A stretch of 64,000 bases of DNA. Source: Isurus oxyrinchus (lineage: Eukaryota). Below, piece by piece: positions 32,677 through 60,810 of the stretch; the stretch's first letter is position 1; every line of letters begins with the position of its first letter. The notes beneath the pieces were generated by a model. The model did no database searches and was not told the origin of the DNA. It saw only the letters and a program-made list of their open reading frames with translations. Location: positions 80,414,001-80,478,000 of the forward strand of contig JANJGN010000015.1 in the NCBI GenBank assembly GCA_026770705.1. The letters are read 5' to 3'. Made by a program: the position numbers and the translations under genes.

Positions 32677-35136
32677 ATGGATATTGGTGGACAGTCTATC
32701 ACCAGAAATTGAGACAGAGAGGTCAAGGAAGAGAAGGGAAGTGTCAGAGATGGACCATGTGAAAATGATGGAGGGTGGAGATTGGAAGCAAAATTAATAA
32801 ATTTTTCCAGGTCCCGACGAGAGCATGAAGCAGTACTGAAGTAATCATCGATGTACCAGAGAAAGATTTGGGGGCGGGGCCGGAGTAGGACTGGAACAAG
32901 GAATGTTCCACATACCCCATAAAGAGACAAGCATAGCTGGGGCCCATGCGGGTACCCATAGCCACACTTTTATTTGGAGGAAGTGAGAGGAGTTGAAGGT
33001 GAAATTGTTCAGTGTGAGAACAAGTTCAGCCAGACGGAGGAGAGTAGTGGTGGATGGGGATTGTTTGGGCCTCTGTTCGAGGAAGAAGCTAAGGGTTCTC
33101 AGACTGGTGGAGGATGGAGTTGTAGAGGGATTGGACGTCCATGGTGAAGAGGAGGCGGTTGGGGCCAGGGAACTGGAAATTGTTGATGTGACGTAAGGTG
33201 TTAGAGGAATCACGGATGTAGGTAGGAAGGGACTGGACGAGGGGAGAGAGAAGGGAGTCAAGATAGCGAGAAATGAGTTCCGTGGGGCAGGAACAGGCTG
33301 ACACGATCGGTCTGCCAGGACAGTCCTGTTTGTGGATTTTGGGTAGGAGGTAGAAGCGGGCCGTCTGAGGTTGGGCGACTATCAGGTTGGAAGCTGTGGG
33401 AGGAAGATCTCCAGAGGAGATGAGGTCAGTGACAGTCCTGGAAACAATGGCTTGATGTTCAGTGGTGGGGTCATGGTCCAGGGAGAGGTAGGAGGAAGTG
33501 TCTGCGAGTTGACACTCAGCCTCTGCGAGGTAGAGGTCAGTGTGCCAGACAACAGCACCACCTTTGTCAGCAGGTTTGACCTGAGGGTTAGGGTTGGACC
33601 TGAGAGAACGGAGTGCAGTAAGTTCAGAGAGAGACAGGTTAGAATGGGTGAGAGGAGCAGAGAAATTGAGATGACTAATGTCACGCCGACAGTTCTCAAT
33701 GAAAAGATCAAGAGAAGGTAAGAATCCAGAGGGAGGGGTCCAGGTGGAGGGAGAATATTGGAGGTGGGTAAAAGGATCTGTTGAACTGGGAAAGGATTAC
33801 TGCCCAAAGAAGTGAGCACGGAGATGAAGGCGGCGGAAGAAGAGTTCAGCTTCGTGCCGAGCCCGAAATTCATTGAGATGAGGGCATAAGGGTATGAAAC
33901 TAAGTCCTTTGCTGAGCACTGAACGTTCAGCGTCGGAGAGGGGATGGTCAGGGGGTATAATGAATACACAGCTGGGGCTGGGATTGGAAGATGGGGTGGG
34001 GACCCCACCGGCCTCCGCATTCAAAGGATCATCCTCCGTCATTTCCGCCAACTCCAGCATGATGCCACCACCAAACACATTTTCCTTTCTCCCTCCCTGG
34101 TGGCATTCCGTAGGGATCATTCCCTCCTGGACACCCTGGTCCACTCCTGCATCACCCCGTACTCCTCAACCCCCTCCTATGGCACCTCCCATGCATACGC
34201 AAAAGATGCAACACCTGCCCCTTCACTTCCTCTCTCCTCACCATCCAAGGGCCCAAACACTCCTTTCAAGTGAAGCAGCATTTCACTTGCATTTCCCCCA
34301 ACTTAGTCTACTGCATTCGTTGCTCCCAATGCGGTCTCCTCTACATTGGAGAGACCAAATGCAAACTCGGTGACTGCTATGCAGAACACCTGCGGTCTGT
34401 CCGCAAGAATGACCCAAATCTCCCTGTCGCTTGCCATTTTAACACTCCACCCTGCTCTCTTGCCCACATGTCTGTCCTTGGCTTGCTGCATTGTTCCAGT
34501 GAAGCCCAGCGCAAACTGGAGGAACAGCACCTCATCTTCCGACTAGGCACTTTACGGCCTTCCGGACTGAATATTGAATTCAACAACTTTAGATCTTGAA
34601 CTCCCTCCCCCATCCCCACCCCTTTTCTGTTTCCTCCACCTCCCTTTTGTTTTTTCCAATAATTTATATAGATTTTTCTTTTCCCACCTATTTCCATTAT
34701 TTTTAAATCTATACCTTCTATGCCGTTAGTCTTATTTCACCCCACCCCCACTAGAGCTGTACCTTGAATGTCCTGCCATCCATTCTTAATTAGCACATTC
34801 TCTTAGATAATATTACCACCTTCAACACCTCTTTGTTCTTTTGTCTGTGACATCTTTTGATTATCTGCTCCTTTCACTGCTTGCTTGTCCCTACAACCAC
34901 CCCCCCCACTTCTCTCCCCCCCAACCCCCCACTCCTCACTCCTCACCACCGCCCCCCCACCCCCACCCCCCCCCCCCCCCCCCCCACCCTCCATCTTAAA
35001 CCAGCTTATATTTCACCCCTCTCCTACTTTTACTCAGTTCTGCTGAAGGGTCATGAGGACTCGAAATGTCAACTTTATTCTTCTCCGCCGATGCTGCCAG
35101 ACCCGCTGAGTTTTTCCAGGTAATTCTGTTTTTGTT
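32677..35136. mobile_element. Penelope-like element with 5' inversion: N-terminus and RT on minus (32677-34003), GIY-YIG and pLTR on plus (34004-35136)
   Basis: Minus: LSKGLSFIP, FTMDVQSLY, AMGTRMGPSYA, WYIDD. Plus: NLVYCIRCSQCGLLYIGET...EH...HF...GLNIEF (34270-34599), then a pLTR with a C-rich tract. Confidence 0.92.
35036..35075 (+). ncRNA. Minimal type I hammerhead ribozyme-like motif in PLE pLTR (variant core)
   Basis: agtt-CTGCTGA-a-gggtc/atgag/gactc-GAAA-tGTC-aact. Stems I and II pair. Core position 6 deviates from CUGANGA. PLE pLTRs are known to carry minimal hammerheads. Confidence 0.55.
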
Positions 35137-59445: not shown

Positions 59446-59549
59446 ACTCAAATACCTTTCGAAAGAAGGAAAGGCTTGCATTTATTTAATGCCTTTCACA
59501 ACTTCAGGGTGTCACAAGGTTTTTCAAAAGAAAAACTGTATTTGTATAG

Positions 59550-59838
59550 CAAAACAAAAACAGAACTACCTGGAAAAACTCAGCAGGTCCGGCAGCATCG
59601 GCGGAGAAGAAAAGAGCCGACGCCCCGAGTCCTCATGACCCCTCGACAGAACTTGAGTTCGAGTCCAAGAAAGAAAACTCTTTCTTGGACTCGAACTCAA
59701 GTTCTGTCGAGGGGTCATGAGGACTCGGGGCGTCGGCTCTTTTCTTCTCCGCCGATGCTGCCGGACCTGCTGAGTTTTTCCAGGTAGTTCTGTTTTTGTT
59801 TTGGATTTCCAGCATCCGCAGTTTTTTTGTTTTTATCT
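59550..59838. mobile_element. Penelope pLTR fold-back insertion: perfect palindrome (arms 59550-59674 and 59679-59803, loop aaac) plus 3' tail
   Basis: The arms were checked base by base and are exact reverse complements. TSD ctgtatttgtatagc at 59536-59550 and 59839-59853. The right arm is homologous to 52925-53085. Confidence 0.95.
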
Positions 59839-59914
59839 CTGTATTTGTATAGCGTCTATCATGACCTCACAGAATCCCAAATCACTTTACAGCAAATGAA
59901 GTGCTTCTGAAGTG

Positions 59915-60810
59915 TTTTTGTCCTCGGCTGTCCCTTGATTCAAGGATGAGTCTCCTCAGGGTTGTGAGTTCTGCCATGGGTCTTCATGTGACTGAAAATG
60001 CAGGTCAATTCTCAACTCACAGATCTTTGGGCACATTGGATAGGACATCCTGTGAGATGGTGGGATCGAGAGTGCAGGATTTGTTTCCTTTTCTTGCCTT
60101 CTCTGTCGTCGCTCTGCCTCATCATTCAGATGTTGTTACTCAAAGCGTGGTGTAGCTTGATGGACAAGTTCTTGTTTTTTAGAGCAATTAGCACCAAGCC
60201 CCTCCCAGTCATTAACGTCAATGGTGTCGCGCTTCAAGGTGAACTTCAAAGTGTCTTTGAAGCAGTTTATTTGTCCTTCCCTGGAACGCTGGCCATTTGA
60301 GATTTGAGAAAACAGGACCTGGAGGGGAAGACACTTTTCAGCCATCCAGACACAATGTCCAGCCCATCAGAGTTCATTTTGCAGAAGTTTAGCCTGAATG
60401 CTTGGGGAGCTGACTTCAAGAAGGACACGAGCATTTGTTCAATGTTCTTCACATTGAACTGGAGGATGCGGCAGAGGCATTGCTGATGAGATTTCTCTAG
60501 CACTCTCTTGTATCACTGTGGCTGTAAGGTGGTCAGTTTCATTTTGTCATGGAGGCGATCAAGGTTAAAGGGTTTTCCATCTAGATGGTATTTAGTAATC
60601 ATACCAGTGGGAATTTGATCTTTGATAAGGTGAACAGCCACTGTCAGTTATTTGTAAATAATATGAGGGTTATCACACAGCCTTTTTTGACCCCAGTCCA
60701 GATTATGAAAGCGTCTGTTTCAGATCTCCCACTCAAGACAGTTGCAGTCATATCATCGTGAAGCAGTTGCAGGATTGTGATGAAGTTTGTTGGACATCCA
60801 AATAAATCCA
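59915..60810 (-). mobile_element. RTE LINE fragment
   Basis: FGCPTNFITILQLLHDDM...GVKKGCV and LEKSHQQCLCRIL motifs. Confidence 0.8.

Follow-up and report, generated by a model that had tools for sequence, protein, structure and literature searches.

The window analysed here is a stretch of 64,000 nucleotides of Isurus oxyrinchus DNA, located on contig C15 of a 4.98 Gb genome. It contains a short palindromic insertion in which eight adenines of a repeat family are replaced by G. The question raised by this locus is whether these changes record the editing of a retroelement RNA by a host enzyme before insertion, or whether they arose in the inserted DNA, were inherited from a variant source element or are errors of the assembly. 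The insertion (59551-59838, Table 1) is composed of an inverted arm without tail, a sense arm and a 35-nt tail. Positions 59550-59674 are the exact reverse complement of 59679-59803, giving perfect 125-bp inverted arms around the loop AAAC, and the 15-bp target-site duplication has no mismatch. Target duplications of 13-16 bp flank most paired insertions of this family. The insertion is young, truncated at its 5' end and non-coding, and derives from a Penelope-like retrotransposon. A read contig (59819-59988) shows no differences and has single-copy depth in run X1, its element side being 20 letters only. Reads from runs X1, X4, X21 and X5 (88% likeness) are swamped by family copies, and the pieces displayed reach the right junction, not the G cluster or the empty allele.

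Table 1. Features of the palindromic insertion and its borders (positions in the window)
Feature	Positions	Strand	Remarks
Target-site duplication, left copy	59536-59550		Identical to 59839-59853
Inverted pLTR arm without tail	59550-59674	-	Mirror C at 59566, 59590, 59617, 59618, 59623-59625 and 59642
4-nt centre	59675-59678		Last three bases are the natural upstream sequence of the right arm; one base is extra
Sense pLTR arm	59679-59803	+	G at 8/22 adenines: 59711, 59728-59730, 59735, 59736, 59763 and 59787
Minimal hammerhead-like motif	59700-59738	+	By-eye comparison with the descriptor of PMC4209133 (available part); fold of unedited copy
Predicted imperfect stem-loop of the element RNA	59754-59817	+	Fold of natural copy L198
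35-nt tail, unedited, on one arm only	59804-59838	+	Such a tail is described for Penelope-like elements in the available parts of PMC8557442 and PMC11167929
Target-site duplication, right copy	59839-59853		Inside read contig 59819-59988

The assignment to a Penelope pLTR made in the preliminary description is supported by the RT and GIY-YIG features of the sibling copies L129 and L198. In L129 an RT followed by a C-terminal GIY-YIG endonuclease lies upstream of the pLTR, an ORF that is absent from the 59551-59838 copy. Pfam profiles RVT_1 (E 3.6e-5) and GIY-YIG (E 2.4e-4) both score just below the Pfam cut-offs, the translation includes YIDD and the GIY-YIG core, and no solved structure matched the ORF piece. 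Both translations carry a DKG motif and a CCHH motif with two Cys inside GIY-YIG, as in the elements treated in the available part of PMC8557442. L129 also has a CX4CXXC linker between RT and endonuclease, within the CX2-5CXXC pattern of Neptune/Nematis. An inverted 5'-truncated copy with a one-ended tail of 30-40 nt, the mark of EN+ Penelope elements, is present at 59551-59838, and the tail is found on one arm only in 33 of the 37 nearest edited arm pairs. The accessible text of PMC8557442 presents an inverted truncated copy with a one-sided tail as typical of Penelope-like elements and calls the origin of inverted structures undefined. Judged by these predicted features, the family is a Penelope-like element (EN+) with features of the Neptune/Nematis type. 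On the minus strand of the window, 33092-34020 is a fragment from the N-terminal part of the same Penelope ORF. Four other loci (L209, L211, L221 and L228) are partial tandems in which both pLTRs start 18-35 nt upstream of the equivalent of 59719, suggesting that the RNA has a fixed 5' end close to hammerhead stem I. A start near this point is also seen in many solo copies.

All eight sites read G in the right arm and C at every mirror position of the left arm, as originally reported. Set against the commonest letter per column in 118 unselected arms of the family, the right arm is different at these eight sites and at 59696 only, the latter being a common family dimorphism (A in 45/72); the 22 arm adenines are thus the 23 majority-A columns minus 59696. 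The tail outside the hairpin keeps its As, again in agreement with the preliminary description, and the length of its T-run is its sole difference from the family consensus. However, the "retained CpG" once listed as a distinguishing difference is simply the usual letter of the family. If each site changes at the background rate of 0.5%, eight changes in 22 adenines have a probability of about 2e-13, or about 1e-8 over 71,097 copies. The 14 other arm adenines are unedited, among them every one upstream of 59711. Seven of the eight Gs coincide with hotspots of other loci. Among the 71,097 family matches, the full GGGG (from GAAA) occurs at this locus only and G at both 59728 and 59729 in two palindromes only. 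Raw Illumina reads from a different sample show the largest share of non-A letters at 59763 (3.6%) and the smallest at 59728 (0.6%); these shares cover seven readable sites and count any letter, so that they are upper bounds, and their ranking is like that of the hotspots. A palindromic insertion on another contig (L083, G000:C3:216880280-216880561) is 98% identical, has six of the eight Gs in common with 59679-59803, a similar 5' extent and later arm-specific changes of its own. The two insertions may derive from a common edited source.

The family was counted with a 34-nt pattern leaving A/G free at five sites (71,097 matches in the genome). AA>GG at the equivalents of 59735-59736 is found in 101 of these matches (0.14%), against 2 for a matched TT>CC control, while single changes number 376 at the A sites and 153 in the T control. 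When 59736 is G, 59735 is also G in about 66/376 (~18%; 66 being the plain-GAAA matches among the 100 GG matches listed, counted by eye), against 2/153 (1.3%) in the T control. Rates were calculated from one arm per locus in 77 loci, 59679-59803 included. The GG set leaves aside two tandem duplicates, one further match and one match from a likeness-selected set; 30 loci picked by likeness to the edited copy are excluded from all rates; and the first 100 unselected matches, which all lie within the initial 5.2 Mb of C1, serve as control. At unselected adenines, G is read in 134/975 positions (13.7%) of edited loci and 7/1491 (0.5%) of controls, on the RNA sense strand only, in line with the ADAR-like clustering first proposed. 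T>C shows a slight rise (11/1569 in the edited set vs 7/2384 in controls, p 0.09). The A>G excess is local, with 2/205 in tails, 5/145 upstream and 0/337 in the ORF of the edited L129. Edited copies are also shorter, starting within 30 nt upstream of 59719 in 63/77 cases (vs 31/69). The two selected Gs are the only ones in 20 of the 77 loci. In 75 loci 27 combinations of G are observed, all four gametes are present for 22/28 site pairs, and the edits occur on three upstream backgrounds. Source-type pLTR-ORF loci, which probably supply the templates, have G at 2/415 adenines (30 of 2,908 junction loci examined). The class consists of about 80 A>G-clustered copies among some 70,000 in the genome, as counted with one two-site probe; at a single hotspot the excess is roughly a thousand arms. 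One edited palindrome is present three times at 5,262-bp spacing (G000:C13:77677719-77688345), the product of a later tandem duplication.

G at the 59763 site is carried by about 1.5% of all arms and creates a CpG. This CpG has decayed by C>T in ~3.9% of cases, about ninefold more than at the unedited site (0.43%); both rates are extrapolated from 12 of the first 100 of 459 matches (denominators 1,406 and 93,217). In fetched arms the figures are 8/67 edited vs 2/156. Such decay is not what a base-caller would produce. The argument applies to the class, the 59679-59803 copy being too young for decay.

ADAR is the known enzyme for A>G changes made on RNA. The strand with the excess is the one in sense with the hammerhead and the ORF, and the changes were therefore likely made on RNA. 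Several multi-exon genes with an adenosine-deaminase domain, candidates for ADAR, ADAD or ADAT, are found on C1, C3, C7, C14, C31, C36 and C713. Sites are edited unequally: G is observed in 61/107 cases at 59763, in 32/109 at both 59729 and 59730 and in 20/105 at 59787, while rates are low at 59711 (10/104), 59728 (2/109) and 59782 (2/106). Adenines with a 5'-G are spared (19/379 vs 116/606 for the others, p 4e-11), which answers the check on ADAR neighbour preference suggested at the outset and agrees with the depletion of G 5' of ADAR-edited A in the available parts of PMC3113232 and PMC5625713. For the other 5' neighbours the values are 61/301 (A), 49/229 (C, driven by one hotspot) and 6/76 (U, a single site). 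However, the ranking of the hotspots departs from the rules for ADAR on a perfect duplex, the one 5'-U adenine being changed in few loci, and two CAG sites, 59763 and 59782, stand at opposite ends of the scale.

Six of the eight changes fall inside 59700-59738. By eye and by fold, unedited copies fit a minimal hammerhead with stems I and II, an unpaired base after A9, G10.1-C11.1, GAAA and a palindromic 15.2-16.2. Predicted stem I (59700-59703/59735-59738) and stem II (59712-59716/59722-59726) are both present in the fold of the unedited copy. The core (59704-59710) has U instead of A at position 6, 59711 is the unpaired base, GAAA occupies 59727-59730 (GGGG in the 59679-59803 copy) and the predicted cut lies after 59734. 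A canonical core with A6 is absent, a pyrimidine being family-wide at position 6 (59707); young copies by the tens of thousands nevertheless keep this motif. Neither the window nor an unedited copy matched a hammerhead family of Rfam, whether at gathering score or with E values up to 10 admitted, and dimer co-folding gave no clean dimeric hammerhead. In the part of PMC11167929 available, hammerhead mutants of the lizard Penelope insert normally in vitro. The preliminary description saw in this locus a record of ribozyme inactivation by the host. This idea is not supported: the edited RNA still inserted, the family core was already without A6, GAAA>GGGG is found at one locus of 71,097 and the copy has no ORF, so that the knock-out appears incidental.

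The second edited region corresponds to the stem-loop at 59754-59817, predicted from L198 with 125-300 nt of context and not stable with longer context. It contains the family hotspot 59763 together with 59787 and places the rarely edited 59782 in its terminal loop, which may account for the inequality of the two CAG sites. However, the monomer RNA is no more stably folded than shuffled sequences (z +1.16), and no long internal inverted repeat was found in the element RNA. An inverted arm lies just upstream in 3/30 source-type loci, that of L211 spanning almost exactly the edited stretch.

Editing had been tied to the palindrome. However, A>G is as frequent in solo copies (69/498) as in copies with an inverted arm (66/487), and special editing of palindromes, considered separately for the short ones, was rejected (32/78 vs 20/69, p 0.17). 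The palindrome of 59551-59838 formed after editing and its own hairpin is not the ADAR substrate. The earlier proposal that the changes precede arm duplication is upheld by the comparison of paired arms: of the unselected A>G changes, 57 are common to both arms and 8 are not (33 tail/no-tail pairs), while the other changes are shared in 8 cases and not in 92 (40 pairs). Since A>G is shared and other changes are not, it is likely that both inverted arms would have been copied from one edited RNA molecule. GG is present in both arms of 29/33 pairs and absent from one arm in 4/33; because only 0.14% of matches are GG, two independent RNAs would almost never agree in this way. Two of the four discordant pairs retain one of the two Gs and fit a later change. 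In two short palindromes (L075:1339-1582 and L110) one arm is fully unedited, which suggests that two different RNAs are sometimes used. Mirrored Gs are common to arms 2.5 kb apart in L129. A further insertion (L072:1416-1950) has three arms with the same GG in each. One of them reads into the beginning of the ORF, after which it switches to a pLTR starting at the equivalent of 59700, as if the RT had hit the RNA 5' end and changed template.

The geometry of the arms bears on their origin. They end at two fixed points, near the equivalents of 59803 and 59838, and target duplications of at least 9 bp surround 29/32 edited pairs. In short palindromes the tail arm is longer in 13 cases, the tail-less arm in 14 and the two are equal in 4 (n=31; alignment ends). 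Simple fold-back of a tailed cDNA, the route originally envisaged for the inverted arm, cannot give a longer tail-less arm (14/31) and was rejected as the only route. Reverse transcription of a whole RNA hairpin was rejected as well, tail-less arms showing no T>C excess (9/1148). According to the available part of PMC11167929, the lizard Penelope protein, a predicted dimer, cuts and extends both strands and starts at two internal sites bounding the tail, a behaviour with which the observed arms agree.

Taken together, a host ADAR probably edited Penelope RNA from A to I, and reverse transcription would have fixed these edits as G in germline DNA. A transcript across the pLTR-ORF junction would be edited over about 80 nt including the hammerhead and the next stem-loop. 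As duplex for ADAR, three candidates may be considered: the element RNA folded on itself, its pairing with an antisense RNA, or a hairpin formed by read-through at the source locus. The element protein would then introduce nicks about 15 bp apart, one in each target strand, and copying of the RNA would begin at two internal points, of which only one includes the tail. The two cDNA ends would join in the middle, either of them possibly reaching further 5'. Alternatively, the second arm might be copied from the new sense strand of the first, which would look identical. The complete scheme, in which ADAR edits recurrently enter the germline through Penelope retrotransposition and barcode one RNA copied twice, from two internal starts, onto two nicked strands, is favoured by somewhat more than an even chance.

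Other explanations account for part of these observations. A different process acting before insertion, either RT misincorporation (for example when dNTP pools are unbalanced) or a deaminase distinct from ADAR1 and ADAR2, would equally leave its changes in both arms. The hotspot order noted above and ordinary T>C changes mirrored in two palindromes could be taken in its favour. It is nevertheless unlikely: errors of a polymerase would be expected to run on beyond the hammerhead region, which the L129 ORF and the tails do not show, and A>G alone rises, on one strand and avoiding a 5'-G. Inheritance of the G alleles from one or few variant source elements is less probable still. The six Gs and unusual 5' extent common to L083 and 59551-59838, the frequency of G at 59763 and the loci with two selected Gs alone are what a subfamily might produce, and the preliminary description had named G alleles in many non-palindromic copies as the sign of one. 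As far as it could be run, this check came out in favour of the preliminary description: the many combinations, the four-gamete pairs and the three upstream backgrounds do not fit common descent, no other substitution class is shared and the source-type loci examined are practically unedited; a rare edited source among the other 2,878 would itself need an origin.

A base-calling or polishing error made symmetrically on hairpin DNA in the long-read assembly, the alternative raised at the outset, has in its favour that the locus is a perfect hairpin without later mutation for dating and that its G cluster is missed by the displayed reads and contigs. It is highly improbable: at least two A>G are seen in 0/20 unselected short palindromes, mirrored Gs in L129 are far apart, seven of the eight Gs lie on hotspots of other loci and the Illumina upper bounds rank likewise. 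Equal editing of solo copies, unedited source-type loci and the decay of new CpGs make both the hairpin artefact and the subfamily unlikely. Just as improbable is an origin of the changes in the inserted DNA, with gene conversion or hairpin repair carrying them from one arm to the other. Homogenisation can occur in perfect palindromes and the arms of 59551-59838 are identical, but across pairs the arms are not being homogenised because their other changes are arm-specific. Moreover, if a hairpin transcript were edited, the left arm would show T>C instead of a mirror, and tail-less arms lack such an excess. With solo copies edited to the same extent, this explanation is largely refuted, and ADAR editing of the RNA before insertion remains the preferred reading.

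If true, A-to-I RNA editing would here have become heritable on a genome scale by way of an endogenous retrotransposon. Such copies would be to ADAR what the footprints in LTR elements are to APOBEC, and would preserve a fossil record of germ-cell editing. The A>G marks also make the formation of Penelope inverted repeats with a one-sided tail testable: they point to two arms of a common template lineage, either of which can be longer. A literature search covering few subscription papers returned no report of genomically fixed ADAR-edited retrotransposon copies, nor of edits tracing both Penelope arms to one template lineage, and novelty is thus unproven. In later genome surveys, APOBEC G-to-A edited retrotransposons have reportedly been found fixed in genomes.

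The present copies can be compared with several known systems. Like the Neptune/Nematis type in the available part of PMC8557442, the family combines RT then GIY-YIG, DKG, a CX4CXXC linker, CXXC in GIY-YIG, a pLTR with hammerhead-like motif, an inverted 5'-truncated copy and a one-ended tail. Unlike the elements described there, about 80 copies here have clustered sense-strand A>G that trace the origin of the inverted structure. Penelope RNA is hyper-edited in lizard brain, and hyper-edited RNA is also present in elephant-shark brain (PMC5625713, in part). The element class, the A>G clusters and the depletion of upstream G are alike, but the lizard case, in the text available, concerns RNA only, whereas here genomic insertions with target duplications are edited over ~80 nt. 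In hyper-edited RAV-1, avian leukosis virus, HTLV-2 and STLV-3 (PMC8586724, in part), ADAR-type edits are likewise reverse-transcribed into DNA. Those retroviruses are exogenous and known from isolated clones or cell culture, while the present element is endogenous, with fixed hotspots at dozens of germline loci. APOBEC editing of retrotransposons (PMC2873906, in part) also leaves a deaminase footprint fixed in copies as clusters of same-type mismatches, but it acts as C>U on cDNA, and here the change would be A>G on RNA. ADAR1 and human LINE-1 provide another encounter of ADAR with a target-primed retrotransposon. There, restriction is reportedly mainly editing-independent and L1 RNA not edited, as far as the accessible part of PMC5224506 goes, whereas here edited RNA was inserted.

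The formation of the two arms can finally be compared with twin priming in LINE-1, in which one RNA is primed from both target nicks and an inversion results. However, LINE-1 twin priming copies non-overlapping parts of the RNA, while both arms of the present insertions cover the same stretch from two fixed starts.
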